Position numbers and translations under genes: made by a program. A DNA stretch of 57,267 bases, counting the filler, from Jimgerdemannia flammicorona (taxonomy: Eukaryota): assembly GCA_003990765.1 (NCBI GenBank). It is 3 parts of 3 records of this genome, joined end to end, with 100 filler letters (N's around TTAATTAATTAA, not from the genome) between each part and the next. Parts side by side here need not be neighbours in the genome. Positions count along the whole stretch, not along the records: positions 38,247 to 57,267 come from RBNJ01002049.1; 2 more parts are not named here. One strand, given 5' to 3'. The notes below the pieces were generated by a model, which saw only the letters and a program-made list of their open reading frames with translations, had not been told where the DNA came from and made no database searches. Shown piece by piece: positions 20,256 to 57,267 of this stretch. Each line of letters opens with the position of its first letter. The stretch's first letter is position 1.

Positions 20256-20258
20256 ACT

Positions 20259-27297: not shown

Positions 27298-29330
27298 TGT
27301 AAGCACACAACCTCCAAGCCACTGAAATTACACATGACCTCTGAACAAATCTGGAAATTACCTACTTGATCATGAAGCTGAGTCAAACCGAAGTTACAGT
27401 GTACAAAGCTGAGTCAATATGAAGTCATGGAACACAAGATCTACACAAACGGAACCTTACCAATTAGGACCAAATGCATATATACCGAGCACCAAGATGC
27501 GTCGAATCAGAGAACCAAAACAAATAATAACCACAACTTCCAAACACACAAACATGACCACTGAGATCTACAACCATATCCGCGCTGACATTTGGAATGC
27601 CATTATCAACCGAGCCACACCCCCTCTGCCCCTCATGAATATCCATAGCCTAGCACCCCTCTACTTCGTGGAAGCCCGATAGAACACCCTGAATATGCTT
27701 AATGAGGCCCACTGGATCAGACAAATATCAAGCTACTACCAGATCGGCCGCCTCTTGGAAGACATGGTTGAATACCACCACGATACAGATATTACCCAGA
27801 TGTCTCAACACCAGAAGCTCATTGCCTGCAAATATTGAGAACTCTTCTATGAGTATAATACCTTTATTCCCCACCTCTGAGTCACTACCAGCAAAATGGT
27901 TGCTACCCTGTCCTATGGCCAAATCGATGACATGATACAAGAACTCAACCACAAGTATCTTGAATATATCCAGACCACAGACAGAACCTTCCCACATCCT
28001 GATGACCATATCCTACAAATGCCTCAAGTCGGATATGCCATGAAGGATGTCTATGATATAATCCACTTCGATGAAGATGAAGCAGAAGACAATGATCCCT
28101 CTGATGCCAACATGACCTCAAGCCAAGGATCTCTGCCAACTCTGATCACTCTGCCAACCTTGCTGATGAACTTACAACAGTTCATAACTACATATGAGAC
28201 TTATTGGGACAATGACCACTGGCATGAATACCAACCCGCGTTCACCCCTGATTACTTCAATTACAATGAAGAGACCGGAGAACACAACCTGTACCTTCAG
28301 ACAACCCTCGAGATCGAACCAACCACTCCACCACCCGAGTACGAGTGACATAAACCACAGCCGCCAGCATACTATAACCCCGTAACTCATAGTACTATAA
28401 CCTATAGAAGGTATGTAGACAGTGAATCCAATGAAAGCGAAGACAATATACTTATCCTTTATCCACCAACACCTTATCCAGCCTATGAGACAGACGATGC
28501 TATCCTGTGGGATGGAGATGAAGTCCCAATATATTACTACCTCAGCCAACAAGGAGAAGTAATCCACGAACCACTCTTCCTAGATGACTACTTCATCAGA
28601 GATGATGCAATCGATGGTGATGTCATCGAAGACTACCCAGATAGTGCCTAAGATCTATAAATAGTCTAGCAGTCATAGTATAGATAGATTAGCCTTGTAT
28701 GACGTGACTGTGAACTGACTTAGCAGTCAGACGATCTCTTGATATGTCAGATCACACTTATACTACATGACTGCATTCTGACTCAGCAAGGCACTTAGTG
28801 CTACATCCATATTCAGCATAGTCCAGATAGCCCCTCACTAGTATAAATACCGTCTCCCCCAGACCTCAGAATCACAGACTTGAATAATCTGAATACAACT
28901 CCTGAGCACTTCCCTACAATATTCCTTCACACAACTACTCCTAGTATAGCAATATCATGAATAGCAAATAAACCTATTCTATAATCCACAAACCACTCTT
29001 AAGTAAATCCGCTCTCTGTTAGGTCCCACTCCTAACCCTGTCACAAAATTTCCAAATTGGATATTGTCTGCAATGATATGCCAATTCAACTAAGCTGGTC
29101 TTAGTTTCTTGAACTTCCTGAAATATAGAAAATCCTGAACATCCAGAACTAGTCTAGGAAAGGACTTTGGTTGAGATATCAACCCAATCTTGAAATCAAT
29201 AAGCATAGAGGACATACTCCATATGAAATTGATCTTGACCATAAGAAAACGGTCTTCCGGAATATCCAGAATCTCCAGAAAACCCTTCCAGAACTATGTA
29301 ATAATTACCCTAAAAAGTAACCCTCTTACA
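27298..29330 (+). repeat. 5' LTR, 2,033 bp
   Basis: 6-bp terminal inverted repeat; TATAAA near 28842 and AATAAA near 28967. Confidence 0.93.
27554..28651 (+). pseudogene. LTR-encoded accessory ORF, 365 codons, unknown function
   Basis: One frame MTTEIYNH...DYPDSA*; internal stops are TGG/CGA-type transitions; same 1,098-bp length in the 3' LTR. Confidence 0.75.
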
Positions 29331-29333
29331 ACT

Positions 29334-29345
29334 TGGTAGCAGCGG
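29334..29345 (+). promoter_or_regulatory. Primer-binding site (probably tRNA-iMet)
   Basis: TGGTAGCAGCGG directly after the LTR. Confidence 0.72.
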
Positions 29346-31366
29346 TTTACAATCCAATTCCGCTTCAAGATACTTCCTCACCCCGCTACAAACCTCTCTG
29401 AGAATTTCTACAAGTTGGTATAAAGCCCAACCTCTGAACTGAAATTTATCCTAAACTATCTGACAATCTGAAGAGAATTGAACCTGATGTACAAGGACAA
29501 TTTGACCTCCACACCTGCAACAAGTGGGATAAACTTCATTCAAAGAAAGAAGTACTCAAGTTAAACCAGCAAATAGGTGAAACCCTATTTATCGAACTTC
29601 TTGCACTACACCCAGCAAGTCAAGATGAAGAAGGTCTTATTGAAGCCTTCTTTACTCTTCTCAATAAGAGTTTTATCAGCTCCACAAATCTGAGTGACCT
29701 AGGACAACCAGCAGCAGTCTTTCTAGCCTTAGTTCCTCATGAAGCCCAAGCCTCTGTAGCCAAGTGGCTCAACTCTACCGACTTTCACTGCACCAGGACC
29801 AAGACCACCTTATACTACCGATTCCAGAACAGCAAGGCCCACCATATCCTCAAAGAAGAAGCAAGAGAAACCCTTCATCAACTACCTGACCCCGAACCTG
29901 AAGTAGGCCCTGCTACAACCCTACCTGAATCTGAAACCAATACTGAACCTGAACTTGACTTTGAATTAAGTCTGTCTGAAATCAGATATACAACTGATTC
30001 TGTCTACTTTGATGCCGAGCAAATCCAATTACACAGGGACCAAACCGAAGAAGAGGAGGAGTATCTCACTGAATTCGACCCCAGATATACCACTGAAGGA
30101 GACGCACATCCATCAGAACAGAATACACCTACTCAGCAACAAACAGTTATCTATCAAGCCCTCACTCCAGATCCACAACTTCTACTCCAGCAACTTACAC
30201 AAACTCAAAGAACCCCATCACACTCTGCACTAGTACCTCAAGTAGTACCAGTAACACCACTACCAGTAGTCCAACTACCTCTAGCAATCAACATGGCGAA
30301 CCAACAGATTCTTGATCTCACAGCCCAAGTAGCTATAATGGCAGCAACTATCACTGCCTTAGCTGAACAGATCTGACCTACCAAAAATCTGAGCCTATCT
30401 ACCTTCAATGGTACTATACAAGAAGTCCAAAGCTTCATTAGTGTAGTTGACACCAACTTTGAAGCCAATCAATGGACCAATGAGCGAGTTGCTGACCATG
30501 TTCTGACAAACAATCAAGACCACACCCTAGAACAACTCTTTGCTACCACTACAGCCTATGTCCGCTGAGTTGTTACATTCTTCCGAGGACCTGCCGAAGA
30601 ATGGTGGTGAACCCTTCCTGAAAAACCCCTCACATGGGATACCCGACCTGCAGTAGTTGCCCAGAATGCAGCAAACAATGCCCCAGGATACGGAGCCCAT
30701 CCTGCAGCCCCTGGACTCAAACAACTCATGATTGCCTAATACCGCAGCAAAACCATGATCGCTGAATCTTGAGTAAAACTCCGCAACCTCAAATTTGACG
30801 TACATGGCAAAGAAGAATTCGAAACCTTCTGTATAAAACTCGAGTCACTCCTGAACACTGTTGGCCTAGGATACATTGCCAATGATGAAGCACGAAATGG
30901 TATAAGAGCAGACCATTTATTCGATGCCCTGCCTGAATGGCTTACTAGAAAAATCCGAGAACAAGGCCACCCAATTGGTTGTGATCACCAACAATAGTGC
31001 CTGGCAAGAATCAAGACTATGGTCAAGCAAATCCTAACAGCTGGACCAATTCTGCCCCAAAGGCAATTCAACAACATGGAAAAGACTTGGACCAAGAAAG
31101 AAGAACCCAAGTATGAAGCATCCCAAGCTCCCTCCACATCCACCTCTTGGACACCTAGAAATCCTGAACCCACCCAGCCCAGTACCTTCAAGAAACTTAC
31201 GGAAGGCGAAAGGAATGAACTCCGAAGAAGTGGAGCATGTTTCTATTGCCGAAAGACAGGACATATGGCCAGTGCCTGCCCTAACTGAAAACCCCGAACA
31301 GTAACATGAGCAACTGTTACCACTCTTCACCACCTCAACAACCTGACCACCAGAACACTGGACTTT

Positions 31367-31765
31367 GTCAAGTTAAGACAAACTGCTAAGGCCCAAACCA
31401 AAAGAAGTCAAAAAGCAGCCGGATATGACCTGTATGCAGCCGAAGAAGCTACAGTTTCCAACCGAGAAGTCAAACAAGTCTATACAGGAATCAGTATCCA
31501 AATCCCTGAAGGACATGTTGGAAGAATATGCTGTCGCAGCAGCCTAGCACTGAAAGGACTCTCAGTAGAAGGAGGAGTCATTGACGAAGATTACACAGGC
31601 GAAATCATTGTCCTCATTCAAAACCACAGTTGGATACCCTTCAAGATCCCTATTGGTTTCTGCATTGCCCAGATCTTGTTCGAAAAAATTGAGTCAACCC
31701 TGACAGTCAAGGAAGTCCCTGAACTACTACCCACCATCCGAGGATCCAAAGGATTTGGCTCATCA
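31367..31765 (+). CDS. dut: dUTPase domain (open in this copy) within the gypsy polyprotein
   Basis: AAGYDLYA, GRICCRSSLA, GGVIDEDYTGEI, IAQI, RGSKGFGSS: all five trimeric dUTPase motifs. Confidence 0.92.
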
Positions 31766-34700
31766 AACAAGGCCCCAGCCCAACCTACTATGAGCAAAGA
31801 AGAACAATTCTACAAGAAGATAGAAGATGGATATGTACCAAGTGGCTAATGCTCTCATGGTATTGGAATGTACTCTTCCCAAATAATTGATGATTGCTTC
31901 TCTTGTGTCAACGAACTGGCTCAAAGAAGAACCAACAGAAGAAAGGCTCCTACAACTGAAATCACCATAATTGGATCAGACAAACTGCTCACCCTTAAAG
32001 CTTTTGTCAATGGAGCACCTGTCAAGATTATGATAGACAGTGGTGCCTCAGGCAACTTCATCAATAAAGAGACAGCCAATAGACTCAAGGTCTTCACCTC
32101 CCCTGTACAGCAAACTCAAGCAGTTGCTACAGCTAATGGAACCTCACATGTTATTAGCAAAGAAGTCCGCAATCTACCCTTCCGAATTGGCGACTACTAA
32201 GTACATGTTACCCTCCAGATCGTACCACTTCCCGACAATGAAATCATCCTTGGGACTCCATGGTTAAAGCAAGAGAACTTCATGATTGATTGGATAAACC
32301 ATTCTCTGACCATCAAGAAAGGATGCCACAACTTCAAACTATAAGGCGAAAAGGACTCACTCAACTCTAGTGACCCTGGACCAAAGATCACCTACATCAA
32401 CAAGCTACAACTCAAGAAATTGGCCAAGAAATGCCCTCTCTTTGCCATCTCCATCCGACTATCCAAGGGAGAACCTGAGAACTCTGAAGAAGATTTTTCT
32501 AAAGTTGACAGCCATGTCAGACCACTACTCCAGAAATTCTGAGATATATTCCCAAAGAAGCTCCCGAAAGGCCTACTGCCCAAATGAGCAGTAGATCATA
32601 TCATCAAGACTATCCCAGATGCCAAACCAGCCTTCAAGTCAATCTACCACATGTCTCCGAGAGAAATTGATGCACTCAAGAAGGAAATCAACAAACTCCT
32701 AGAATAAGAATTCATCAGACCTAGCGTATCACCCTATGGTGCACCAGTCCTCTTCGTTGTCAAGAAAGAAGGAGACCTACGAATGTGCATTGACTACTGC
32801 GATCTCAATGAACAGACCATCAAGAACTGTTGCCCACTACCAAGGATCGATGAAATATTCGATAGACTTACCAACCCACAATTCATGAGCTCTTTTGATC
32901 TGCGAAATGGTTACTGGCAAATTGCCATGAAAGAAGAAGATATCTACAAGACAGCTTTCCAAACTCGCTATGGATACTTTGAGTTCCTGGTTATGCCCTT
33001 TGGCTTAACTAATGCTCCAGCAACCTTCCAGACACTGATGAATACCATTCTGCATCCATACCTGGGCAAATTCATTGTTGTCTACATTGACGACATCCTA
33101 GTCTTCAGCAAAACTCTGGAGGAACATCTTGAACATCTTGAACTAGTACTACTGAAACTCCGAGAAAACAGACTCTTTGCAAAACTCAGCAAGTGCGAAT
33201 TTCTTCTGAAAGAAATTCAATTCCTTAGACACATTGTCACACCAAATGGAATCAAAGTGAACCCCAGCAAAATCTCTGCAATCAAAGATTGGCCCACACC
33301 CAAGAAGCTGAAAGACCTCCAGTTATTCCTGGGATTAGCAAACTATTACAGGCGATTCGTTGCCAACTTTGCTAAAATCACTACTGCCCTTACCCAAATG
33401 ACCAAGCACAACAAGAAACAAGAACAACCCTGGACCATGAAACAAGAGAAAGACTTCAACAATCTTGTAAATTGGAGACCCGAATAAGATACTGCCTTTC
33501 AAGTACTGAAAGATGCCCTGATAACCACACCAGTACTTCAAGTGGCAAATCCTGCCCTACCATATAAAGTCACTACCGATGCCTCTGACCTAGCTCTTGG
33601 AGCAGTGCTCATGCAAGAAGGACACCCTGTGGCCTATCACTCCCGCAAATTCAACAATGCCGAAATCAACTACGCAACTCACGAGAAGGAAATGCTAGCC
33701 ATTGTAGACACTCTGATCAAATGGCGACCATATCTAGAAGGAGCATACTTCACTGTATTGACTGACCACAAGTCATTAGTCAACATCAAGACACAGGCTA
33801 CTCTTTCTTGAAAGCAAGCCAGATGGATGAAAGTTCTCACCAATTTTGACTATGAAATCCAGTACCACCCTGGCAAAGAAAACATTGTTGCTGATACAAT
33901 CTCCAGACCACCCATTGAAGAAGTCATCCAAACTCTCACTTTGGTTACAAACTCCATCATGGAACAAATCATCGCAGCATGTGTTGATGATAAAGAAGCT
34001 CAAGCACTCCGAGAAATCCTGAACAATGATGATACTGACAAGCATACCTGGTACAATCAATACCAACTCAAGGACAAAGCTATCTACTACAAGAACAGAC
34101 TGTATGTCCCAAATAACTGAGACCTCCGAAGGACTATCCTATTCGAATGTCATGATACCCCTACAGCTGAACATTTAGGATTTGATAAATACTACAAAGT
34201 TATCTCCCGAAACTTCTATTGGCCCTGCATGGCAGATCAGCTCAAAACCTACATCACTTCCTGTGATGCCTGCCAATGAAACAAGTCCTCAACATTAGCA
34301 AAACCTGGCTTACTCCACCCTATCCCAGTACCATCTGCAAATTGGGAATAAATCTCTATGGACTTCATTGTACAACTACCCCAAACCAAGAATGGAAAAG
34401 ATACAATTGTTATCTTTGTGGACTATCTCAGCAAACAAGCCCACTTTGTGCCTACTACCACTACTGCAACAGCACCAGACATAGCCACACTCTTGTTTGA
34501 CAACATCTTCCGCCATCATGGTCTTCCTAAGATCATTATTAGTGACCGAGATCCGAAGTTCACCAGCCATTTTTGGAAAGCCCTCTATGCATACCTTGGA
34601 ACAAAACTTGCACTATCCACAGCCTTTCACCCTGAAACTGATGGCCAAACCAAAAGAATGAACCAAACTCTAGAACAAATGCTAAGGAACTATGTCTCCT

Positions 34701-35850
34701 ACAGACAAGATGATTGGTATGAACATCTCACTGCAGTCGAGTTTGCCTATAACAACAGTAAGCAAGTCTCTCTGGGAATGACCCCATTCTTCGCCAACAC
34801 TAGACAAAATCCAAACACCCCTTTGACACTTGTCCAAACCACTGAAGAACCCTCTACAGTCGAAGCTGTTGAAGAATTCCTACTCCGAATGCGCAATCTA
34901 AGCCAGATCACAATTGAGAATTTATCACAAGCTCAAGAACAACAGTCACAGTATGTTAACCAACACTGCTGAGAAGAAACTTTTGATATTGGAGAAAAAG
35001 TCCTACTGGACATCAGAGGATACTGAGTTGACAACCTCAAGCACAGACCATCTACAAAGCTAAACAGCAAGTTCATTGGACCATTTGAAGTTATTACACG
35101 AGTCTCTCCAACCTCCTACAAACTGGCGCTACCAGACACCATTAAGATTCACCCAGTCTTTAATGTTTAATGTCTCAAGCAATACAATAACAATAATGAT
35201 GAGCTATTTCCAAACCGAACCACCAAACCACCTGCACCTATCATCATTAATGACCAAGAAGAATATGAAGTTGAATAAATCCTCAACAAACGTGGTAACA
35301 AGAACCTTCACAAGTACCTTGTCAAATGGAAAGGTTACTCGATCTACGATGCAACCTGGGAACCCAAGACCAATCTCCAGAATGCTACTGACCTAGTTCA
35401 GGAATATGATTTCTTGAACAACTAGAACCAAATACTCTGCACCTATCTATATATACTATATATTACCCTCCTGAATATTATAACTATCATGAACCAAGTC
35501 AAGAACTCAGCAAAACAAGACAAGAATACTGAATCCCTGGAAAAATAGCAAAACTGAAAGCAAGCCTATTCTCCCTGTACCACTGATGGGAAACAAGGCG
35601 TAGACATTTAAGAAGATTTCTTAGAGGAAATTCTCCAGCAGTGAATGATATCAGAATCACTTCTGGCACACGGCATTAAACACATGACCCTTTAATGTGT
35701 GAATCCAATGCGTTAGGCAACTGTACTATGAGCATGCCACTTTCTGAGAAAATGGACCTTACCAGACTTTTGACCTTCCAAATGGTGTAACAACACTAGA
35801 ACAAATTAAAAGGCCCCAATGAGGACATTGAAAGCTAAGAAGGGGAGAGT

Positions 35851-37893
35851 TGTAAGCGCACAACCTCCAAGCCACCAAAATTACACACGACCTCTGAACA
35901 AATCTGGAAATCACCTGCTTGATCATGAAGCTAAGTCAAACTGAAGTCACAGCGCACAAAGCTGAGTCAATATGAAGTCACAGAATACAAGATCTACACA
36001 AATGGAACCTTACCAATCAGGACCAAATGCATATATATTGAGCACTGAGACACGTCGAATCAAAAAACCAAAACAAACAACAACTACAACTTCCAAACAC
36101 ACAAACATGACCACTGAGATCTACAACCATATCCGTGCTAACATTTGGAATGCCATTGTCAACTGAGCCACACCCCCTCTGCCCCTCATGAATATCCATA
36201 GCCTAGCACCCCTCTACTTTGTGGAAGCCTGATGGAATGCCCTGATTATGCTTAACAAGGCCCACCGGATCAGACAAATATCAAGCTACTACCAGATCGG
36301 CCACCTCTTGGAAGACATAGTCGAACACCACCACAATACAGACATTACCCAGATATCTCAACACCAGAAGCTCATCACCCACAAACATCGAGAACTCTTC
36401 TATGAGTACAACACCTTTATTTCCCGCCTCTGAGTCACTACCAGCGAAATAGTTACTACCCTGTCCTATGGCCAAATCGATGACATGATACAAGAACTCA
36501 ACCACAAGTACCTCGAATACATCCAGACCACAGACAGAACCTTCCCACATCCTGATGACCATATCCTACAAATGCCTCAAGTCGGATATACCATGAAGGA
36601 TATCTACAATATAATCCACTTCGATGAAGATGAAGCAGAAGACAATGATCCCTCTGATGCTGACATGACCTCAAGCCAAGGATCTCTGCCAACCCTGATC
36701 ACTCCACCAATCTTGCCGATGAACTTACAATAGTTCATAACTGTATATGAGACTTATTGGGACAATGACCACTGGCACGAATACCAACCCGCGTTCACCC
36801 CCGATTACTTCAATTACAATGAAGAGACCAGAAAACACAACCTGTACCTTCCGACAACTCTCGAGATTGAACCAACCACTCTACCACCCAAGTACGAGCA
36901 ACATGAACCACAGCTGCCAGCATACTATAACCCCACAACTCATAGTGCCATAACCTATAGAAGGTATGCAGACAGTGAATCCGATGAAAGCAAAGACAAT
37001 ATACCCATCCTTTGTCCACCAACACCTTATCCAGCCTACGAGACAGATGATGCTATCCTGTGGGATGGAGATGAAATCCCAATGTATTACTACCTCAGCC
37101 AACAAGGAGAAGTAATCTGCGAACTACTCTTCCTAGATGACTACTTCATCAGAGATGATGTAATCGATGGTGATGTCATTGAAGACTACCCAGATAGTGC
37201 CTAAGACCTATAAATAGTCTAGCAGTCATAGTATAGATAGATTAGCCTTGTATGACATGACTGTGAACTGACTCAGCAGTCAGACGATCTCTTGACATAT
37301 CAGATCACACTTGTACTACATGACTGCATTCTGACTCAGCAAGGCACTAAGTGCTATATCTATATCTAGTATAGTCCAGATAGCCTCTCACTAGTATAAA
37401 TACTCCCTTCCCCAGACCTTAGAATTACAGACTTGAATACTTGAACAATCCAAACACAACTCCTGAGCACTTCCTCACAATATCTCTTCACATAACTACT
37501 CTTAGTATAGCAATATCATGAATAGTAAATAAACCTATTTAATAATCCACAAACTACTCTTAAGTAAATCTGCTCTCTGTTAGGTCCCACTCTTAACTCC
37601 ATTATGAAATTTCCTAATTGGGTATTGTCTGTAGTGATATGCCAATTCAACTAAGCTGGTCTTAGTTTTCTTGAACTTCCTAAAATACAGAAAATCCTGA
37701 ACATTCAGAACTAGTCCAAAAAAAGGACTTTGGTTGAGACATTAATCTGAACTTAAAATCAATAAGTATAGAGGATATACTCCATATAAAATTGATCTTG
37801 ATCTTAAGAAAACAGTCTTCCAGAATATCCAAAACCTCCAGAAAACTCTTTCAGAACTATGTAATGGTTATCCTAACAAGTAACCCTCTTACA
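35851..37893 (+). repeat. 3' LTR, 2,043 bp
   Basis: TGTAAG...CTTACA, follows the PPT. Confidence 0.93.
36107..37204 (+). pseudogene. LTR-encoded accessory ORF (3' LTR copy)
   Basis: Same frame and length as 27554-28651. Confidence 0.73.
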
Positions 37894-38146: not shown

Positions 38147-38246
38147 NNNNNNNNNNNNNNNNNNNNNNNNNNNNNNNNNNNNNNNNNNNNTTAATTAATT
38201 AANNNNNNNNNNNNNNNNNNNNNNNNNNNNNNNNNNNNNNNNNNNN
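38147..38246. other. Assembly gap with artificial TTAATTAATTAA linker
   Basis: 44 N + linker + 44 N. Confidence 0.98.
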
Positions 38247-43300: not shown

Positions 43301-43314
43301 TGCTATTACCAAGT

Positions 43315-44111
43315 TGTAATAACTCTCACTTCTACCTCTCTCTTATCCTTTGGATAATTAGAGAAGTGGACTATTACTTAGGGACTTAGTACACAATGTG
43401 TACCAAGAAGTCTTCAGTTTGAGGAAGTGCTTGCTTAAAGTAGTTTGTAGCAGCAGTGTCTTCTATTTCAAAGGTCTTTCTCTTGTGCCCTATTTCAAGG
43501 GTCTTGTTCTTTGCTGTGCACAGACTGAATTTGCCTTAGAATTTAGATTCAATGGATTTACTTAAGTCTTTGGAGATTTATATATCAGTCTCAGTTCTGG
43601 CAGAAGTTAGCTAGGCTTCTGGAGTTTAGTCAGAAACACTAGAGTCACTTAGGTATTATTACTAAGACTCAGGGGAATGTGTGTATGGAGGGAGGACTTG
43701 ATTCTTGTATTAAGGACTGAACTAAAACTGCTTTATTTTGAATGGAAACTGGGGGGTATTTATACAAGTTGGTCCATGATTTCTAACTAAGTATAAGTGA
43801 CTAATTTGGTAACTATAATGAGGTTTGTGATTGCAACCTTTGTCAGATGGTTTTTGGTAAAGAATAACTTTGTGATCAGGACCTCAATTACTAGGCAATG
43901 ATCAGCAGCTGTAGCAACTGTTGCTGTGGCACCGATTGTTGGGGATAAGCTGGATATCGTTTTCTGCATTGTTTTGTATTGTTTATCATTTGTCGTTCAT
44001 AATATTGTATGCCATGCTTCATTTGTATGATGATGTCATCACTCACCAGGTCATGTGATCATTTATGATCACTCATCACATCCCATCTGTTTGCTCATTC
44101 ATTCTATTACA
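43315..44111 (-). repeat. Family 2 5' LTR, about 797 bp
   Basis: 7-bp terminal inverted repeat; homologous to 45181-45964. Confidence 0.9.
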
Positions 44112-45180: not shown

Positions 45181-45964
45181 TATAATAACTCTCACTTCTA
45201 CCCCTCTCTTATCCTTTGGATAATTAGGGAAGTAGACTATTACTTAGGGACTTAGTACACAATATGTACCAAGAAGCCTTCAGTTTGAGGAAGTGCTTGC
45301 TTATAAGTAGTTGTAGTGGCAGTGCTTTCTGTTTCAAAGATCTCTCTCTAGTTTGTCTTCTATTTCAAAGGTCTTGTTCTTTGCTGTGTACAGACTGAAT
45401 TCGCCTTGGAATTTAGGTTCAAATGAGTTTTCTTAAGTCTTTGGGGATTTATATATTGGTCTCAGTTCTGGCAGAAGTTAGCTAGACTTGTGGAGTTTAG
45501 TCAGAAACACTAGAGTCACTTAGGTGTCATTACTAAGACTCAGGGGAATGTATGTGTGTGGGGGGGACTTGATTCTTGTATTAAGGACTGAACTAAAACT
45601 GCTTTATTTCAGATGGAAACTAGGGAATATTTATACAAGTTGGTCTACAATTTCTGACTAAGTATGAGTGACTAATTTGGTAACTATAATGAGATTTGTG
45701 ATCATGACCTTTGTCAGGTGGTTTTTGGCAAAAACAACTTTGTAATCAGGATCTCAATTACTAGGTAATAATCAATTGCTGTAGCAACTGTTACTACAGC
45801 ACTAATTGTTGGGGATAAGCTGAATATTGTTTTTCACATCATTTTCATTTGTTCATCATTCATTATTCATATGCCATGCTCGATTGTATGATGACGTCAT
45901 CATTTGCCAGGTTATGTGATCACTTGTCATATCTCATCTGTTTGTGCTCTTTCATTCTATTATA
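45181..45964 (-). repeat. Family 2 3' LTR (terminal TG/CA mutated to TA)
   Basis: Homologous to 43315-44111. Confidence 0.88.
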
Positions 45965-45975
45965 TCCTTCCCACC

Positions 45976-46481
45976 TTAGAAATCAATGTCCTTGTTGATT
46001 GAGAAATTGAGAACCAGGGGAGAGAAAGGTGGAGAATCCTCCTCGGAGTTGTTGCCATCTTCTTCAGTTGCAGAGGGGATGGTTGCTGATGGTTTGCTGT
46101 CCAGAGTGGAGTAGTCAATGAGGTCTGCAAATGGTTCTTATATGGAGATGGGTGCTGGTGTTGGAGTTCTCCATCTGATGTGGTTGGGTCCATCCAAGTA
46201 GGGTTCTTGATCCTCATGTCTGGGGATATTCATTTGGATTGGAGGTCCTTCAAAGAAGTCAGAGAGGCCTTGGAGCCATTGGTCTGAGTTATTATTCAGG
46301 AGGGAGCTCCAGTAGGGTTTGCAGTCAGTAGACTTGAGAGAGATCCAGAAGTTGGCTTCTTGGGCTACCTTGATCTCTAGTTCGTCAATCTCAGAAAAAG
46401 AGAGATTCTGGAAGTCCTTCAGTTGGACATAGTTGAGGTTGGGGATTGCAAAGGGTGCATGGTACATAATTTGGTGGACCT
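45976..46481 (-). pseudogene. Family 2 accessory ORF, C-terminal part
   Basis: ORF 46138-46467, in frame with 52355-52706 once the LINE is removed. Confidence 0.7.
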
Positions 46482-46562
46482 CATCTCTCTCTGCTACAAT
46501 TCACGTTACACACACTTTACAACACACTTTCAAATCATTTATTGGAGAAAGATATTAAGGAG

Positions 46563-48597
46563 ATATTAACCAGCAAGCAAGCCGATGCATGTCCTAGGTC
46601 GGGTAGACCTGGGGCCTTCAACTGGCAGCATGTTGGAAGAGGGTATGGACTAGGGATGGGGTCTTTTGGTGGATCGAGTGGACTGGGCAGCTTGGGTGAT
46701 AGAGGTGGGGCACTGGTGGGGGGGCTGGAGAGTAGTAGGGAGGGAGCTTTGTGGATGCACTTAAGGCTGGGGGTTGGCCAAGGGGTGCCCACAGTGGACA
46801 GGCAGGAGGAAAGGGGAAGCAGAAGGTTGGAGATGCTGGGGGAGCTGGGCCTTCACTGGTGGGAAGTGGAGGGAGTAGAGTAGTGGCTGGGGGTAGTGGC
46901 AGGACTGCTGATGGTAGTGTGACAGTGAATCAGGAAAAAAAAAGAAATGTGACAGCTGATGGTCAGGGGGGGCAGGGGTTCCCAATGTGGAAGGGGGACC
47001 TGGCTGATAGTGTAATGGGACTGGCAGTGGCCCCATTGCTCAAGAAGTCGATCTCAGAGTTCGCAGCTACCTTGTGCTTCAGGGACTTGGCGGTGACAGT
47101 GAGGATGGTCCTGGGGCTTATTTCAAGGCAGGTGGCTGGTGCGGCCTCAGTGAAGTTCTTGAAGGGCCTGGAGGGGGTTGAGGTGGGCTTTGAGGAGGCA
47201 GGCCTACTGGACAAGGCCATGAAGACAAGAGTGGTGGTTGGGGAGGTGGTGGTCCCCATGGTGAGGTGCTTAAGGTGGGACCCCAGGGTGATACAGCTTC
47301 TGGTAAGGGGGGTGCCCATGGTGACTAAGGAGGAGACTAGGAGGAGGGTGGAGGAGGGGATGGTAGAGTATGGTGATGTGGTGGACATTGGCTTTCAGTT
47401 GTAGGAGGGGATGACTATCAGGACAGGTGACATTGATGTCAGGATTCAGTTGGCAGGGAAGGAGGCCACAGAGAAGACAAGTGACTGGCCCTCGGTGCTG
47501 ATGTGGGGGGCCATCATCTGCAAGGTGTCAAGGGTGAAGGGCAGTGAAGAGGAGGAGGAGGACTTGTTAGAGGTACTGGAGGAGTTGGGTGGTACTGTGG
47601 AGAGGAGGGCGAAGGCCTGGAAACTGTATGAGGAGTCGACACATCTGGAGGTTGTGGGCGGGAAGCATATCCATATGGATAAGAAGCAGTGGGAGTGGAC
47701 CCAGAGATGCAAGAGGCAGAGGGAGCTGTTGGCGAGTATGACAGGTGGGGGGAAGAAGAATTTGGGTGAAGCTGAGGAGTCTGGAGGCATTGAGGCCAGT
47801 GTCTGGGCTGGAAAGGAGGAGAGGAGGTGGAGGCAAAGGAGGCAGGGGCTGGGAAGGGGCTGGACAGGAACCCATTTGCTGATGGGACCTTTGAAGTGTG
47901 GGAGCTGGAGTTGGATGCCACCCCCCCCCCACTTATCAGGAGGGGCCCAGTGGGGAAGCGAGGGATGATGGAGGATACATGGATACAGAGGGCCCAGCAG
48001 GTGTGCTTTGGGGTCCCTGATGTGGTACAAGGGGGTCAGATGGTGGCAGTTGGTGAGGATGAGCTGGTGGATGTCCCTGAGGAGGAGTGGGATGAGGCTG
48101 CTAGTGTAGGGGCTGACACCACAATGTTGGATGTAGGGCGACCAGGGACTCCAGGAGGGAAGGAGGTGGGGAACTTGTTGTAGATATGCAAGGTGATGGA
48201 TAACCTCACAGCAGAGGCTTTGGGGGAGGTAGATCTGTGGGTGATGCCTGAGGAACATTGGGCAAGGATTCTGCATGGTGATGGAATAGTGGAGGGACTG
48301 AAGGTGGAGATTCTGGCGATTTTGCTGGAGGAGGAGGGATATAAGGTTGATAAGGTGAGGAAGGCAGAGCTGGGGGTGGTTGCTGGTGAGCAGGCAGACT
48401 ACTGTTGGGCAGAGCATCACAGTCTGCGGCTCTGGCAGGAGGTCTGTCTGGAGTATCGTGAGGATTTTGAGGAGCATGAAGATGGGGCAATGGTCAAACT
48501 TCTGGGAGAGCTGGAGGCACAGGAAGCTGGGGAGAGGGAACTGATTGCTGAACATGGATTGGACTTGGTGCAGGAGGGATGGGATACCAACTTATAG
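46563..48597 (+). pseudogene. LINE ORF1, disrupted
   Basis: Fragments 46751-47404, 47411-47968, 47827-48183, 48193-48597 homologous to 3502-5541. Confidence 0.87.
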
Positions 48598-48630
48598 AGG
48601 ATGGGACCCCAATATATATCATTATTCTTT

Positions 48631-51600
48631 ATGAACAGTACAACCAACATTTTCTCCTTGAATGTGAATGGGTTAAGGGGCTCTGGGCAGCGTAGGAACA
48701 TTTTTACTTGGCTCAAGAGATTGGAGGCTGATCTCTTTTTATTGCAGGATGTTCGGTGTGAGGATGAGGATGATTGGGTAGAGTGGACTAGGGAATGGGG
48801 GGGGGCTGCTGCTTGGTTTGGAAAGGTAGCGATTCTGGTGAGGAAGGGCAGAGGAGACTTGGGGGGAATCAGGAGCTGGAGTGATCGCTTGGTCTGGGGA
48901 GATTGGCATCAGCTAGGGTGGGAATCGGTGAAGGTGGGCTCTTGCTACTGTCCTGCGGCTAGGGGTAAGAGGATTGCATGGATTAGGGGGTTGCTGGAGG
49001 AGGGTATCCTCTTGGAGGAAGGGGTCAATGTTCTTGGTGGGGACTTTAATATGGTTTGGGATCAGTGTCTGGACAGGACTGATAGAGGGAGGAGTGCCGG
49101 GGGGAGAAGTGGAGGTCTGGATATATGGGAGGAGGTGGAGATGTTGAGCTCCTTGGGGGATATGGGCAGAACAAGGTGGGGTGATACCAGAGTCTACATG
49201 CATTGGGTGAATGGCTTGGGCACAAGGATTGACTGGATTCTGATGGTGGAGTATTGGGGTTCAGATGTTTGGAAGGCATTGGAAGTGGAGTGGTGCCCAT
49301 GGTCTGATCACTGGAGACTGTTGGGGCAGGGGCAGTTTGGGGGGAGTGGAGATGGATCTGGACATTGGTACCTTAACTCCTCCCTGCTGGCTGAGAAGGG
49401 ACTGTGGGAACCATGGGTGGAGGACATTCAGGCAAAAGTTTTTATCTGGAAGTATGAGGGTTTGCCTGTGGCTGTCCGCTAGATGAGATTGAAAGAGGCT
49501 GCAAGGGTTTATTGGGGAGGGGCTGGTAGAGAGGCTGGGAGGCAGAGAAGGAGGTGCATGAGGTGTGCTTCCAGCAGGCTGAGGAGACTACAACTAGATT
49601 GGGCGGATTTGCTCACTGTTGTAGGGGTGGAGGATTGGAGGATAGAGAGGGCGAAATTGGAGATAGTGGAACTACAACAGGTGCTGAGAGAAGAGGAGGA
49701 GACCCATATGCAGGGCATGGCTGCTAGGCTGCAGTGGCAGGGGCTTGAGGAAGATGAGCGGCCTACTAGGTACTTATCGAGACTTCTCAAAGCTAGGAGA
49801 GTGCATCATTGGTGGGACAGAGTCCTGGATGCTGATGGGGACATGGTTCATGGTATGCAACAAATCTTGGGGGTCTTGAAGGAGAGATGGCAGGGCTTGT
49901 GGAGTGAGGGAGAAGAGGGTGCAGATGAGGCAGAGATTGCGAATACACTAGATGAGTGGGGGCCACCACAGATTGCTGGACTGGGGGACTTGATCTTACC
50001 AGTACAGGGAGAGGAGATCCAGAGTGTCCTGGCAGCAACTAAGCTTGGGACGGCACCAGGGGAGGATGGATTGCTATGGGACTTCTGGAAGAAGATGGTA
50101 AACATCCCTGGAGTTTTGGGCGAGATGGCTGCTCTTTGTGACCATGTCCTTCAGAGTGGTGAGTGGGTTGGAGAGCAGGATCTGGGGCTGGTGGTCTTAC
50201 TGTACAAAGACAAGGGAAGGAGGGAAGACTGGAAGAACTGGAGGCTGATCATGCTTCTGGATATGGACAGAAAGATGGTGACTAAGGTGATTGTCGTGAG
50301 GCTGCAGAAAGTTGCCCAACAGGTGCTGGAGGAAGAGCAGAGGGGCTTTATTGGGAGCAGGCTAATAAGAGATGGGACTGCATGGGTTAATGATGTCATT
50401 GAAGGGGTCTGGGCCTGTGGACTGGATGGAAGATTGGTCTTTCTGGACCAGGAGAAGGCCTACGACCATGTACAGTGGGTGTGGCTGGGAAAGATGTTGG
50501 ACCGAATTGGGGTTCCCCCAACATTTAGAGCCTCAATGTTGAGTTTGCTGGAAAGTAGTTGGGCAGCTCTGACATGTAATAGTCACCATGAGAGGGCATT
50601 TCCCTTGGGAAGAGAAGTACCTCAGGGGGACCCTCTATCTCCGATTTTCTATGCTCTTTCACTGGAGCCATTGATGGATAGGATTCGCCAGAAGGTAGCA
50701 GAGCTCTCTATATATGGTATAGTGTGGAAGGTGGGGGCCTTTACTGATGATATGGTGGTTGGACTTGAGTCTGTGGCAGATGTAGAGGCACTTCAGAAGA
50801 CTGTGGAATGATATGAGGCTCACTCGGGGGCGAAACTCAACTAGCATAAGTGTGAGACAATGATGCTAGGGAATGGGCTAGTGGGTAGGGACATCATTGG
50901 AACAATTGTCCCTACTGGTGAGGTGGTGTGGTATCTGGGCATCTTCCTCTCTGTATATGGTTCTGTCTTGCCATGAGTGTGGTGGGAGAGCAGGGTGAAT
51001 AGTTGGGGGGAGGCCCTTCATGGTTGGGGAGGCCACCATATCTCTCTAGCAGGGTGGGTGTCAATCCTGAATGTATATTGGTTCCCAAAGCTGTGATATG
51101 TGGCATATCACCTCGACTTCTCAGTGTGGGTGGTAAAGAAGCTGACGAAGGTGGCTAGGGATTGGATTTGGGCAGGGAGGAGGTCCCAGGTCAGTTGGGA
51201 TACTTTTGTGAGACCAGTAGTCAGGGGAGATCTTGGCCTGGTGGATTTCCCTAAGAGGCTGCACTGCTTGAGAGCCTGGTGGTTGAAGAGAACTGTGGAA
51301 TTACAGGGTGGTGGTTGGGTGCCTCTGCTGCAGAAGGTATGGGAGATATGAATGTCACCTCGAGGGTCCTCTGGAGATCTGCTCTCTTTGGTGGGACTGA
51401 ATGGAATTCGGAGACTGCGGTTCAAGAGCTTTTGGTGGGGAGTGGCTGATGGAGCACACCAAATTGGCTTACACTGGCAGGGTAATGAGGGGGAGGCAGC
51501 ATGGGGGCCTAATATGTGGCTTTGGGATAGGCTGCTCCTGGGGGGTACTCCACTGGCTGCATTCAATATTAGGGAGGGAGTGGAGTATCAGCAGGGGCTT

Positions 51601-52290
51601 GGCCAGGATCTTTGGCTGAGTGGCTGGCAGGCAGTTGGAATTGGAGAGGAGTGGGACTGGGCAGGCATCTGGTCTTGGAGTGCAGAGGTATGGAGGTGGC
51701 TTCCTTCCAAGTTCTGGGTGGTATGGTGGAGAATGTTGTGGAGGAATGTCATGCTGAATTTCTGCTCAGGGCATTTAGTAGAGGGTGGACAATTTGACTG
51801 TGAGGAGTGTTATGATGTTGGGCAAGCTGGGGGTCATGTACAGATGCCAGAACATTGGCTGGGAGGGTGTGAGGTTTTGGGGGAATTTTGGGCTGAGATA
51901 GGGGATAGACTGGGTGTGGGGTGCCGGCTGGTGGGAGAGGGGGATTGCTGAGAGGACTTAAGATCTCAGCTTGTGGGTGGGGTGGGTGATAGTAGTATGG
52001 GTGGGACTGGTGGGACATTGGCTTTTTGTATTTGAGGAGGGGCAGCAGTTAGGGCTGTGAGAGAAGGTGTTAAGGTGGGAGGAGTTGGTGGGGGATCTGC
52101 TGACTGGATGGTGGGTGGGTTGGGGTCTACAGGGGGGATGATATTGCGGTTTGGTGGTAAAGATCTGTGAGCAGAGTGGTGGGAGGGTGGGGATAGTGTT
52201 CGACAAAGTGGTCTTTCATAGAGAAGGGGTAGGAGGGGGGAGCCCCCCTAGGGGGATTGGATAGGGGGTGGAATCACTGTAATTATATAG
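48631..52290 (+). pseudogene. LINE ORF2 (APE + RT + C-terminal CxxC..H..C), disrupted by stops
   Basis: 48601-49482 EN, 49483-50811 RT, 51352-51951 with CEEC...EHWLGGC; 3' end approximate. Confidence 0.9.
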
Positions 52291-52354
52291 GATAGATGGG
52301 AATTAATAAAGGAAAAGAGTCCAAGCAACTATAAAAAAAAAAAAAAAAAAAAAA

Positions 52355-52706
52355 TGATTTGGTGGACCTTCTTGGCAAGTCTTTGCTTGTGTCTATCCAG
52401 GTGGGTCCAATCAGAGACTTGGTCCATAGGCAGGTCCTTTGCCTGTTGGAGGAGTTGATGGCCAATCTCATATTAATGCCAGATATCTAGGCGGCTGGTG
52501 GCAAGGTAGGCTCTTTCAATGACTTTATGGTGGTTGAGAACATAATGTCCTAGGTCCTGGCTAGAGAGGTTAAGGGCCTCTGAGCGGCAGTTCCTTCCTT
52601 AGATAGCAATCTGGATGTGTCCAAAGAGGTAGTCAACCTGCCTTGGGAGGGGCTGGCTATGGTGGGCAGTTTGGTAGCAGGTAGCTTGGCTATGGATAGT
52701 AGGCAT
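52355..52706 (-). pseudogene. Family 2 accessory ORF, N-terminal part
   Basis: Manual translation MPTIHSQ...YEIGHQLL...LAKKVHQI, two TAA stops. Confidence 0.68.
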
Positions 52707-53350
52707 TCTTGTCTTATCTTTTCTTTGTAAGGAGAGGGGGATGAGATTTGCAGGGTATTCTTGCCTTGGGTATTTATACTTATTCACCCATCTGGTGTGA
52801 CCTTCTTTTAGTCACACTTTCTTGCCAAATGTGTGACCTGTTGCTATAAGCAGGGCATGTGCTGGTCATATGAGAAAATCCTGATTTCAAAGATATTATT
52901 ACTTATAGTTGTAGTTACACAGGGTTAACAGGTCTTGGTCCACTTTTTTTTTGTCTGGTTGGCACATTTGTGAGGACTGGCCATCTTTGTCTAGGGTGAG
53001 GGCTCCTATTATCATGGCTGGGGGTTTGAACCTCTTGGAAATAGACTTTCTTGTAATCTGAGAAAATTTCTAGTAATAATATCTGTCACATAGATGGACT
53101 TAGACTGGTTTCGATACTGTCAGCTTTCCTAAGTTCCATATGAAGTATCTGTCATCATCCAGTAGAGATGATACAGATGGCATGAAATAGAGTTGTTCAA
53201 ATATATTTTGCTGTAATATGCTAGACTGTCCTTTACTCAGGCCTCTTCTTGTTGGTTATCTATAGTGTTTCTTTTTTTCCACAATGTTTGGTATTATATA
53301 TTTCTAGATAAAATATGTAGTCTTCTTTTGTTCACTATGTGTTCTAAATC

Positions 53351-56300
53351 TCAGAGCTGCAAGTTCTTCCTTTGCTGTGAAGTAAGTATTTCTATGTAGT
53401 TCTGGAGGGCTTCATGTGTATTCTTCCGAGCTTCTTCTTTTTCCCAGGTGGCATCATGGGTAGGGTAATCCTTCTACTTAATCAGGAAAAACTGCTTGAC
53501 TGTTTTGGGATATTTGCAGACCTTATGGTCAAGAACTTCCTCAATTTCAAATTCCTCATGATCATTGATCCTAATTGGGGGTGGTAGTGGAACTGTATGC
53601 TTAGGGAATGAGTTCTCATGGTAATCCACCAATTGGCTGATATAGAATACTGGGTGTACTCGGATATTGTGAGGGAGTTGCAACTTATAGTTGACTTTAC
53701 TGATTTTTTCCACAATCTTGTATGGTCCAATTCTTCTAGCATGAAGTTTTTTAGCTGGTTGTTATGCCAGAATATCAGGGTGGAGGTGGTCTGTTCTAAG
53801 CATGACTCTGTCACCAATGTTATAGGAGACTTCTCTTTACTTCAAGTTTGCATACTTGGTTTGGTAGTCTTATACTTCTATGAGGGCATCTCTTGTTATT
53901 TGCATAAGATCAGAAATGGTCTCAGCCAGATCTTGGGCTAGTGGGACTGCTGATTTTATAGTAGTGCTTAGGGTCCTTGGGTATTGACCATGGTTCAAGA
54001 AGAATGGAGTCTTCTTCATGGAGGTTTGCTGACTGTTGTTGTAGACAAACTTGGCATGGGCTAGGTACTTGTCTCAATTATTTTGCTTGTAACAGCAGAA
54101 GATGCTAAGCATCTATTTGAGAGTCCTGTTGGTTTGCTCAGTTTAGCCATCAGTCTGAGGATGGTAGGTAGTAGAGAACTTCAGCTTAGTTCCATGGAGA
54201 GAGAAAAATGCCTTTCAGAAGTTACTTGTGAACTTGGCATCTCAGTCAGATACAATAGTACTAGGCATGCCATGTAGTCTGAATACTTGATTGAGGAAAA
54301 TCTCGGCAATCTCTGGTACTGTAGTGGTGGTCTTAGTGGGTGCAAAGTGGGCTTATTTGCTTAGGCAGTCTACAAATACCACTATGGCATCCCATCCTGC
54401 CTTGGTCTTGGGGAGTTGGACAATGAAGTCCATTGCAATCTGATCCCAGTTGTGACTTGGGATAGGTAGTGGTTATAGAAGTCCTGCTGGTAGCTTGTTA
54501 CCACTTTTGAACCTTTGGTATATCTCACAAGAAGTTACAAAGTCTTTGATGTCCTTGGTCATCTTTGGCCAGTAGAACTCTCTTGAGAGGAGGTTGTAGG
54601 TCTTTTCAAAACCAAAGTGTCCTGCTGTAGGAGTATCATGAAGTTTCTGCATAATCTTGAGTCGCAGAGTATCATTGTTGGGTACAATGGTCCCTATAGA
54701 TAAGTCCATCATGGTAAGTGAATCTCTTGGCCATTTGCCTCAAGGGTTCTGAGATCTCAGCCTCTGGGTCTTGGCAGAATTGAAGGAATTTCGTCAGGGG
54801 GCTGTCTTGCTGATAGCTATCCTTGATTATTTGAGTAAGGTCTCTAATTACCTTGACTATGAAGACAAGTTCATCTTCCATGTATCTGGAGAAACCATCA
54901 GCCACATAGTTTGTTTTGCCTGGGATATACTTGATTTCTATATCAAAGTTGGCAATGATTTCCATCCAGCAGACTTGTCTGTGGGTCAGCATGGGCTGTG
55001 TGTGAATATACTGTAGGGCATGGTGATCAGTGTAGGCCACAAATAGTTGTTCTAGGAGGAAATGGTGCTATTCCTGGAGTGCAGTAATAATGGCCAGAAG
55101 TTCCTTCTCATGAGTAGTATACTGGGTCTCAGCTGGCTTGAGCTTTTGGGAAAGATAGGCCACTGGGCGGTCTTCTTGGCTGAACACTGCTCCAATAGCA
55201 ATATCAGAGGTATCTGTGGTCAGAGTGAATGGCCTGGTAGGGCCAGGTGCAATTAGTACCAGGGCCTTAGTAAGGAGTCTCTTGAGATGGTCCATAGCCT
55301 GAGTGTATTCCAGGGTCTATTCAGTTTTGATGTTCACTTCCTTGTGGACCAGGCTAGTCAATGGAGCTGCAATAGCAGAGTATCCTTGGATAAACCTTCA
55401 GTAATAATCAGCAATACCCAGAAAGCACTGGAGTAGCTTGAGGGTAGTAGGGATAGGAATATTCTTAAGGGCTGATACCTTTCGGGGGTCTACATTGATA
55501 CCTTCAGCAGAGATAATATGTTCTAGATATTCAATCTGGTCTTAATAGAACTTGCATTTGCTCATCTTGATATAGAGCTGGTGTTCTCACAGAAGGATCA
55601 GTACTTGTCTGAGATGGGTATAGTATAGCTCTACTATTTCACTGTAGATTAGGATATCATCAATATATACAAGGACACAGATGTTGAGAAGTTGTCCAAA
55701 GATGTCATTCATCAGATACTGGAATGTTGCTGGTATATTGGTCAAACTAAAAGGCATGACTTGGAACTGATAGTGTCCAAACCATGTTCAGAAAGCTGTC
55801 TTCTCAATGTCCTTTTCATTAATGAGAATCTGGTGGTAGCCATTTCACAAGTCTAGTAGAGAAAAGGTCTTGACCTTGAAGATTTGGTGTAGCAACTCAT
55901 CAAACCTAGGTAAGACATACCAGTTCTTGATGGTGATCTTGTTGAGGGCTCTGTAGTCAATACACATTCACAGAGAGCCATCCTTCTTCTTGACAAATAG
56001 AATAGGGGCTCCAAATGGAGAGTGACTGGGTTCAATATATCCTTGGGTCAGTAATTTGGTCAACTCATCCTTGAGGGTCTTGAGTTCAGGTTGGACCAGT
56101 TGGTAGATACTTTTGTATAGGGGTTCAGATCCTGAAATAAGATCAATTCCATGTTGGATTTGGTGCTTAGGTGGAAGTCCTTGAGAGTCTTGGAATACAT
56201 CTTGGAATTTTTCAAATAGTTCTTGAGCTTCTGTTGGAATTGGGCTACTTGTAGCTTCAGTAACTTCTTGTACTATACAGATGAAGTAGGTGTTTCCCTT

Positions 56301-57233
56301 TTTTCGAGAGAGTCTCTTCATTTAAATGGCAGAGATGATTTCGATTCCCTGATAGTTGGTATCTTCCTGGAGTGTCAGAGTGATCTTTCTGCCTTCATGG
56401 GTCAGGTTAACCTCATTGGTTCTCCAGTTGATGTCTGGGTTGTACTGGGTCAACCAAGCTTTTCCTAGGATAATGTTTTATCCTGAGAGATCTATAATGC
56501 TGAAGTTCAACTTCTCTTGATATTTGTCAATCTTGAGCAAGAGATCCTCACAGATCTTGGTCAATGGTACAGTCTTGCAATCACCAAAGATACAATTCTT
56601 TTCTCAGTGGTGAGTCTGCTTCAGGCTTCAATTTTCTTGGCAGTCTTGGTACTGATATAGTTTCCAGTAGTATCACTATCAAGCAAGATATTGTCATTCT
56701 TTCTGTAGACTTGGCCTGTGAACTTGATGCAACTGTCCTCCTTCTTGATGGTATTGAGCTCTTCATCTTCATTGTTGTCCCAATTGCTGTCAGTCTCCTC
56801 GAAGTCAGTTTCTCTCCATTCTTCATAAGGAGGGTTGTCTTGTTTGGATTCCTCAGTCTGTTGAGCTTGGCATTTCTCAGAAAACTTTGGAGAGGCATGC
56901 ATGGTATTCACTAACATGTTCTATACAGTATATTTGAATCGAATGAGGGCATCATCCATATGGTGCATAATCATCTACAATTCTCTTATACCAGTTTTCA
57001 TCATCTTTCTTCATAGTAGTAACCTTTTGACTAGGAGGTTTGTTGGTAGATTCAAACCCTTTCTTGCCATGGTCTGTCTGGGAGAGTTCAGGGACTTCTT
57101 CAATAGTGAGATCTTGATGGATTTCTTCAATGATTGCTTGGGCAATTCTTTGGCCTGTTTTGACTTCAAATGATATATCTCCAAAATTTCACAAGATAAC
57201 ACAGATTTCACCAGTAAATCCTTGATCAACTAC

Positions 57234-57238
<5 letters not shown>
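53351..57238 (-). pseudogene. pol: Family 2 pol: dUTPase C-half, protease, RT, RNase H, integrase, chromodomain
   Basis: GVVDQGFTGEI, LLDS, SPFGAPILFVKKKDG, TDTSD..EKELLA, HDTPTAGH..C, EEFEIEEVLDH..HDATWE. Confidence 0.9.

Positions 57239-57267
<29 letters not shown>
57239..57267 (-). repeat. Poly(A) tail of a minus-strand LINE (contig end)
   Basis: T-run next to a 31-bp sequence also found at 41136-41166. Confidence 0.7.

Follow-up and report, generated by a model that had tools for sequence, protein, structure and literature searches.

Do two divergent families of chromoviruses (Ty3/gypsy retrotransposons bounded by long terminal repeats (LTRs)) in Jimgerdemannia flammicorona carry the same accessory gene, outside the LTR in one family and within it in the other? 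The question is raised by a stretch of 57,267 nucleotides (nt), filler included, which is referred to here as the window (GenBank assembly GCA_003990765.1; three parts of three records joined end to end, positions 38,247 to 57,267 being from RBNJ01002049.1). Its content is a nest of decayed retroelements in which every LTR-element copy is dead. In each of the two families an open reading frame (ORF) follows pol, and a reading of the sequence alone had proposed that the two ORFs represent one old, selected third gene of the lineage. The analysis presented here leads, with modest confidence, to a related view: the two ORFs probably go back to a single accessory gene ('ORF3') of a dUTPase-bearing chromovirus lineage, from which they have diverged, and a fast-evolving gene is the best reading of the evidence. 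The features and their coordinates are listed in Table 1.

Anatomy of the two families

The two families, family 1 on the plus strand and family 2 on the minus strand, have the same order of domains, with the dUTPase upstream of the protease, followed by reverse transcriptase (RT), RNase H, integrase and the chromodomain, as seen from Pfam matches and from the colinearity of families 1 and 2. Translated comparisons (tblastx) gave identities between the families of 48.6% over 278 residues for RT, 51% for the integrase, 42.5% for RNase H, 41% for gag and 48.6% for the dUTPase. All six blastn matches between them were in gag or pol, with no DNA similarity elsewhere, which agrees with the earlier observation that the two LTR types are unlike at the DNA level. 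Based on the common domain order, these identities and the restriction of DNA likeness to gag-pol, the two are therefore sister families of dUTPase-bearing chromoviruses. The chromovirus features found include LTRs with TG..CA ends, a primer-binding site (PBS)-like sequence following the 5' LTR and a polypurine tract that precedes the 3' LTR. The gene had been called old; its known distribution is these two sister families only, and that part of the proposal is not upheld.

The family 2 ORF belongs to the first of two family 2 elements (A and B) and is split by a long interspersed nuclear element (LINE). When the LINE and one copy of its target-site duplication are excised, with NNN at the break, the frame is continuous (...LAKKVHQI XX YHAPFAIPNL...) to a TAA; the last 16 nt of the upstream piece of the ORF are the 3' copy of the duplication. 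The claim that removal of the LINE rebuilds an ORF between pol and the polypurine tract is thus confirmed, with exact coordinates, a continuous frame and a target-site duplication. The rebuilt ORF is in sense, after pol and before the 3' LTR, which is the position of the sense additional ORFs known as aORF-3S, and is present in the window as one copy (n=1). Contigs from four public runs cover 45900-53400 as short pieces that are 85-95% alike, none of which joins across the LINE; they match part of the family 2 ORF at ~91% identity and none spans it. Among the public sequencing runs listed as containing these sequences, which are soil or root metagenomes and a coded 'organism A' with shares of 0.22 or less, there is no RNA run.

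The family 1 ORF is present in the window as two full copies (A and B) and two partial copies. It is wholly in U3, because it is located between the start of the LTR (26777) and the LTR TATA box (28841); it follows pol and is inside the LTR, unlike an ORF in the usual aORF-3S position. The anatomy given in the sequence-only reading, with the ORF outside the LTR in family 2 and within U3 in family 1, is correct.

Relatives of the family 1 ORF

An exhaustive profile search of 1.84 billion representatives returned three proteins, P0001, P0002 and P0003. P0001 (247 amino acids (aa); E 3.4e-101 in a word-based search) corresponds to codons 118-366 of the family 1 ORF with 65% identity, ends at the aligned C-terminus and differs from the ORF in length by two in-frame gaps of two residues only. 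P0002 (128 aa), found by the profile search, corresponds to codons 1-128, is 87% identical, has no stop and is open across three of the four stop sites of copy A (codons 43, 95 and 109). P0003 (E 4.8e-4) was rejected as a chance or repeat-inflated match: it is a repeat protein (six repeats) in which Pfam gave scattered noise. A scan of metagenome contigs with the family 1 alignment gave 74 pattern matches, none of which was confirmed.

In a neutral, substitution-only simulation from copy A to 65% identity, 8 of 3,000 sequences were free of stops. The frame of P0001 has been maintained, which therefore argues for purifying selection in an active family 1 lineage, with the caveat that protein databases hold only frames open enough to be called. 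The family 1 ORF, judged on these comparisons, looks selected. Of the proposal of a selected gene, the part that concerns family 1 therefore stands, on its intact relatives and the simulation, and the part that concerns family 2, for which no relative was found and whose one window copy is dead, does not.

The first portion of LTR2 (26777-27790) contains a repeated unit with a period of 489 bp, the second unit restarting with the first bases of the LTR (TGTAAGC near 27299); as a result, codons 1-86 of the accessory ORF are present a second time (27065-27322; 79% identical to P0002). A second TATAAATA follows the family 1 stop codon by 5 nt (28656 and 37209) and precedes the promoter box of the LTR by ~185 nt.

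Similarity between the two accessory ORFs

The family 1 ORF and the rebuilt family 2 ORF align over a block of ~70 residues with ~24% identity, which includes YQIG/YEIG, FIPxL/AIPNL and LSYGQIDDM/LSFSEIDEL. For Smith-Waterman scoring the two family 2 pieces were joined with X at the break. The joined sequence scored 63 against copy A, which was reached by 3 of 2,000 shuffles, and 63 against the intact P0002, which was reached by none of 3,000 shuffles in either direction (Gumbel p 1.3e-4). Six block-shuffle nulls, in which local composition is kept, reached the score against P0002 in 0, 0, 1, 2, 0 and 1 of 3,000 cases, and permutation of intact 10-residue blocks reached it in 3 of 3,000; the joined score was thus matched by 0-3 of 3,000 under seven nulls, which upholds part of the alignment made by eye in the sequence-only reading. 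Reversed sequences scored 40 and the best of 123 other ORF pieces in the window (20,921 residues) scored 41. The figures were weaker with BLOSUM45, where gap penalties of -13/-2 gave scores reached by 9 and 167 of 2,000 shuffles.

The similarity is specific to the reading frame on both sides. The frame of the family 2 ORF scored 65 and the five other frames 25-32; on the family 1 side the ORF frame scored 63 or 52 and the other frames of the LTR 27-39. The similarity had been proposed over ~120 aa; the block of ~70 residues is above chance and the first 60 residues (AI*GRN.. and AIINRAT..) are at chance, their score being reached by 6,354 of 20,000 shuffles. Hydropathy profiles, which were not used as evidence, correlate weakly along the diagonal of the original alignment over the first 60 residues (r 0.19-0.37) and have their best offset in the later part at 21, as in the alignment. 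The shuffles, together with the occurrence of the ORFs in sister elements and their same position, sense and composition, make it likely that the aligned block is homologous.

Alternative explanations

Several results weigh against a shared gene, and they include the points in favour of the alternative that survives best, namely that two unrelated, lineage-specific ORFs follow pol and that the likeness over 70 residues is due to chance. Taken singly, the family 2 pieces are at chance, their scores being matched by 168, 206, 109 and 651 of 1,000 shuffles. In a tblastn search of the window with P0002 the downstream piece was found at E 3.7 and the upstream piece was absent among the 60 high-scoring segment pairs listed. 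The score of the joined sequence varies with the copy and the matrix, with p at 3e-2 to 8e-2 in some settings: against copy B it was 52, reached by 73 of 2,000 shuffles, and BLOSUM45 with gap penalties of -9/-1 gave scores reached by 79 and 159 of 2,000. The lowest p-value rests on P0002, which was picked after the window copies had been seen, and because P0002 was chosen after the first tests the true p is put at 3e-4 to 3e-3. In addition to the N-terminal 60 residues, the C-terminal halves are not alignable (score 34 against P0001, reached by 2,189 of 3,000 shuffles), and no bridging sequence was found among the 1.84 billion representatives, none of the three proteins returned being like family 2. 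Against chance stand the rarity of the score of 63 under the seven nulls, the confinement of the match to the two ORF frames when six frames were compared per side, its collinearity with both starts, and the fact that these are sister elements whose ORFs agree in position, sense and two-part composition. On this balance, two unrelated ORFs are an unlikely explanation.

It is less likely again that only the family 1 gene is real and that the family 2 frame is a decayed, fairly open spacer between pol and the polypurine tract. Searches of proteins and metagenome contigs found neither a relative nor an intact copy of this frame: word-based protein searches with the two pieces returned none, and a scan of metagenome contigs with a family 2 piece gave 125 pattern matches, none of which was confirmed. 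The rebuilt ORF has three internal stops, all TAA, the upstream piece has another frame with equally few stops, and, on the sequences compared, nothing shows selection on the family 2 ORF, whose sole copy in the window is dead. The stops are uninformative about the ancestor because the pol of the same element is equally decayed. The spacer is further disfavoured by a frame that is kept across the LINE excision, from a TATA-preceded ATG to a stop at the polypurine tract, by its being the only family 2 frame that resembles P0002, and by the downstream piece, which is far more open in the ORF frame than in the other two.

Three further points are to be set with the difficulties of a shared gene. 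When AlphaFold2 was run on single sequences, P0002 came out as an all-helical model of low reliability (pLDDT 51), and P0001 yielded no fold (pLDDT 36). The TATA-like sequence GCATATATA upstream of the family 1 ORF appears weak as a promoter candidate. The divergence between copies A and B of the family 1 ORF is neutral (the synonymous share is 0.33, where 0.32 is expected), which fits dead copies.

Predicted properties of the accessory protein

Neither accessory ORF matched a Pfam family; a sub-threshold match to Apo-CIII (16.9 bits against a cut-off of 34.1) was disregarded. A sequence search of the PDB with E up to 10 gave no matches, and the ESM Atlas gave no usable match for P0002 or P0001. 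The maximum 19-residue Kyte-Doolittle means were 0.57, 0.97 and 0.45, so that there is no hydrophobic segment and the proteins are therefore not env-like; with low hydropathy and a blank Pfam result, neither a signal peptide nor a transmembrane anchor, the marks of an env-like protein, is indicated. A captured fragment of a host gene (by transduction) or an env-like gene is accordingly very improbable: in the cases described in PMC7264820, a sense ORF located between pol and the 3' LTR in other Ty3/gypsy elements is frequently env-like or captured, against which stand the lack of a Pfam family and of a PDB sequence match, the recovery of only two true relatives, both element-like fragments, in the exhaustive search, and a maximum hydropathy (0.45-0.97) that argues against a membrane or fusion protein.

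If the two ORFs are copies of one gene, as favoured here, its product has two parts. The N-terminal domain of ~130-150 residues is near-neutral, with a net charge of -2 in both families, and probably helical. Based on the sequence comparison, only the last ~70 residues of this domain are still recognisably alike between the families. The remainder is a tail that is strongly acidic, rich in aromatic residues and proline, and probably disordered. The tail of P0001 has a net charge of -36 with 14.6% F+W+Y and 9.7% P, and that of family 2 has a net charge of -13 with 10.8% F+W+Y and 11.5% P.

Polypurine tract position, candidate promoters and possible function

In the genomic RNA of either family the gene lies between pol and R, and the difference is in the position of the plus-strand primer, the polypurine tract, which sets the start of U3. 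In family 2 the gene comes first and the tract second, which leaves the gene internal and in a single copy, with an LTR of 0.8 kb; in family 1 the order is the reverse, so that the gene belongs to U3 and is copied into both LTRs, which are 2.0 kb. This account is based on the observed anatomy and the established mechanism of plus-strand priming.

Six occurrences of the box GTATAAATA are present in the window, where 0.17 would be expected, and none of 100 shuffles reached that number. Five of the six are the LTR promoters of both families and the sixth is the box before the family 2 ATG, which suggests that the family 2 ORF may have its own promoter. The gene would be read from a 3'-coterminal subgenomic mRNA, running from its own TATA ~70 nt before the ATG to the poly(A) site of the LTR.

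Tails rich in acidic and aromatic residues resemble acidic activation domains. The preferred function, put forward with low confidence, is therefore that the protein regulates the expression of its own element or serves as an adaptor in it, the tail acting as an activation domain; that the accessory protein regulates or adapts element expression is a doubtful proposition on present sequence data. Among the roles suggested in the sequence-only reading (anti-silencing, transactivation and targeting), only the composition of the tail gives a direction, and it leans to transactivation. More doubtful still is the possibility that each 2-kb LTR of family 1 is a complete gene, with a TATA-like box, the 366-codon ORF, the LTR TATA, R and a poly(A) signal, that supplies a trans-acting activator or anti-silencing factor to the whole family. 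If this were true, there would be two copies of the gene per insertion, solo LTRs would still make protein, and a shift of the polypurine tract would turn an internal gene into one that outlives its element.

Comparison with known systems

A description of the accessory ORF was not found in the literature searched. The retroviruses have accessory genes in or overlapping U3, which include sag of mouse mammary tumour virus (MMTV), bel/tas-bet of foamy viruses (with an internal promoter) and lentiviral nef. By analogy, sag, bel/bet and nef would be the nearest functional parallel. Like them, the family 1 ORF is in U3 and thus at the 3' end of the genomic RNA, and the TATA box just upstream of the ORF suggests an internal promoter such as that of foamy viruses. 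It differs in that the whole ORF, and not merely its end, is inside U3 and that the element is a retrotransposon without env; no sequence link was found in Pfam or the PDB, and the expression of the family 1 ORF is only predicted.

From Ty3/gypsy elements of plants and insects, sense additional ORFs located between pol and the 3' LTR (aORF-3S) are known, most of them env-like (PMC7264820). The ORFs here share with the cases given in that source a third ORF in gag-pol sense after pol, borne by a family and with a role that is mostly unknown. The cases it describes are internal and mostly env-like with membrane segments, whereas the ORF here has no such segments, and its passages on aORF-3S make no mention of fungi or chromoviruses.

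Among fungal elements, dUTPase-bearing chromoviruses have been described from basidiomycetes, and PosPlaTy3-3 is a fungal chromovirus with the dUTPase at the N-terminus of Pol (PMC2864245). An 'add. ORF' of unknown function is indicated in some fungal chromoviruses in the legend to Figure 3 of the same paper (Novikova et al. 2010). As here, these are fungal chromodomain Ty3/gypsy elements, some with a dUTPase and some with an extra ORF; the likeness is by description only, the text around that legend giving no sequence or position. An additional gene, brtn, is reported for Boty/BcGypsy1 of Botrytis cinerea (10.1101/2021.04.13.439636). In what is described of it, it is likewise an extra ORF in a fungal Ty3/gypsy family. 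The orientation of brtn is antisense. It differs from the ORFs here, which are in sense, and is carried by an ascomycete element without a dUTPase.

Other features of the window

Table 1 Features of the two chromovirus families and of the nested LINEs, with positions counted along the window.
Feature	Position	Strand	Basis or remark
Family 1 accessory ORF, copy A, 366 codons	27554..28651	+	stops at codons 43, 95, 109, 265
Family 1 accessory ORF, copy B, 366 codons	36107-37204	+	stops at codons 20, 42, 109, 209
Family 1 aligning block, codons 62-127	27737..27934 (copy B 36290-36487)	+	alignments and shuffle statistics
Family 2 accessory ORF, upstream piece	52354..52706	-	ATG 52706-52704; TAA stops at codons 36, 78
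Family 2 accessory ORF, downstream piece	45976..46465	-	one internal TAA; terminal TAA 45978-45976
Family 2 counterpart block, residues 79-148	52472-52354 plus 46465-46378	-	
LINE splitting the family 2 ORF (endonuclease and RT ORFs, 3' poly(A))	46482..52353	+	ORFs, junctions, other window copies
Target-site duplication, 16 nt	46466-46481 (5' copy) and 52354-52369 (3' copy)		15/16 bases identical
GTATAAATA box, candidate internal promoter	52771..52779	-	73 nt upstream of family 2 ATG
TATA-like GCATATATA, weak candidate promoter	27476..27484, 36029-36037	+	~75 nt upstream of family 1 ATG
Family 1 LTR1	19381..20255	+	5' side cut by LINE fragment
Family 1 LTR2 (TGTAAG...CTCTTACA), 2554 bp	26777..29330	+	LTR alignment
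Family 1 LTR3, 2043 bp	35851..37893	+	carries ORF copy B
Family 1 polypurine tract AAGAAGGGGAGAG	26763-26775, 35837-35849	+	one base before each full LTR, upstream of accessory ORF
Family 1 PBS-like TGGTAGCAGC	3 nt past LTR end	+	
Family 1 LTR TATA box GTATAAATA	28841..28849, also 19768 and 37394	+	190 nt after ORF stop
Family 1 second internal region: PBS-like site, gag, dUTPase, protease, RT, RNase H, integrase, chromodomain, polypurine tract	29334..35849	+	
Family 1 dUTPase	31310-31849	+	PF00692 2.2e-34, upstream of protease
Family 2 element A pol: dUTPase C-terminal part, protease, RT, RNase H, integrase, chromodomain	53353..57267	-	Pfam
Family 2 polypurine tract GGTGGGAAGGA	45965..45975	-	abuts accessory ORF stop codon
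Family 2 3' LTR, element A, 784 bp	45181..45964	-	aligned with second LTR copy
Family 2 5' LTR, element B (TGTAATAG...TTATTACA)	43315..44111	-	aligned with element A LTR
Element B PBS-like TGGTAATAGCAG	43311-43300	-	after 5' LTR
Element B gag and dUTPase N-terminal part	43100-41100	-	remaining internal portion
LINE copies/fragments	5575-7482, 16911-17210, 18766-19377, 38200-41100, 44112-44411, 46482-52353		

Family 1 (19381-37893) is a tandem array with common LTRs, in the order LTR-internal-LTR-internal-LTR, with units of ~9.07 and 8.55 kb. These are not two independent insertions; the arrangement points to elements that recombined unequally or to a concatemer formed at integration. Of the accessory ORF, LTR1 retains the final 66 codons (to 19579); the TATA box and the end of the LTR are likewise kept, with a PBS-like site at 20259-20268. 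Downstream of the LTR TATA box, AATAAA is found at ~28967 and 37528.

The pol of family 2 element A is decayed, with many stops and frame changes, and gave Pfam matches to dUTPase (6e-12), RVT_1 (1.4e-26), RT_RNaseH (3.2e-29), Integrase_H2C2 (1.5e-22), rve (3.1e-6) and Chromo (3.2e-6). The dUTPase PF00692 is found in the two family 2 elements (6e-12 and 3.1e-12) and is upstream of the protease in both families. The 3' LTR of element A has mutated ends, TA..TA in place of TG..CA; its TATA is at 45636 and AATAAA at 45608. Both family 2 elements are truncated within the dUTPase at an almost identical point (window positions 57267 and 41100): element A starts at position 64 of the dUTPase profile, after an A-run at the window end, and element B stops at position 78, where a LINE begins. 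In both families a long frame is located upstream of recognisable gag (29438-30376 and 42389-43024), of 312 aa in family 1 and with ~36% identity between the families. The 312-aa family 1 frame has no Pfam match; the long frame is probably an N-terminal extension of gag.

The LINEs belong to one family with at least six copies or fragments, 74-96% alike, nested within and between the LTR elements, and the GC skew is very strong across LINE-derived stretches. Copies A and B of the family 1 ORF differ at 82 positions, of which 80 are transitions and 2 are transversions, an extreme transition excess. Transitions also make up 116 of the 133 polarised changes in the three family 1 LTRs, without a clear CpG or CpA context, and differences between the window and public contigs are likewise mainly transitions. 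The excess points to decay of the cytosine-deamination type.

Significance

It is mainly in plants and insects that extra genes of LTR retrotransposons are known, and a role has been assigned to hardly any of them; for fungal chromoviruses the only one located is the unexplained 'add. ORF' of a single figure legend. Should the homology fail, there is left one orphan but selected LTR-borne ORF, that of family 1, a narrower yet unusual finding. The analysis also provides a concrete candidate protein, a helical domain with an acidic tail, for transactivation or anti-silencing roles. If the homology holds, an element-specific gene has been kept through ~50% divergence in pol, and its position relative to the LTR boundary has been changed just by a move of the primer site. 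The two families would then represent a natural experiment on residence in U3, where each insertion has two copies of the gene and solo LTRs let it survive, and a retrotransposon parallel to the U3 genes of retroviruses.

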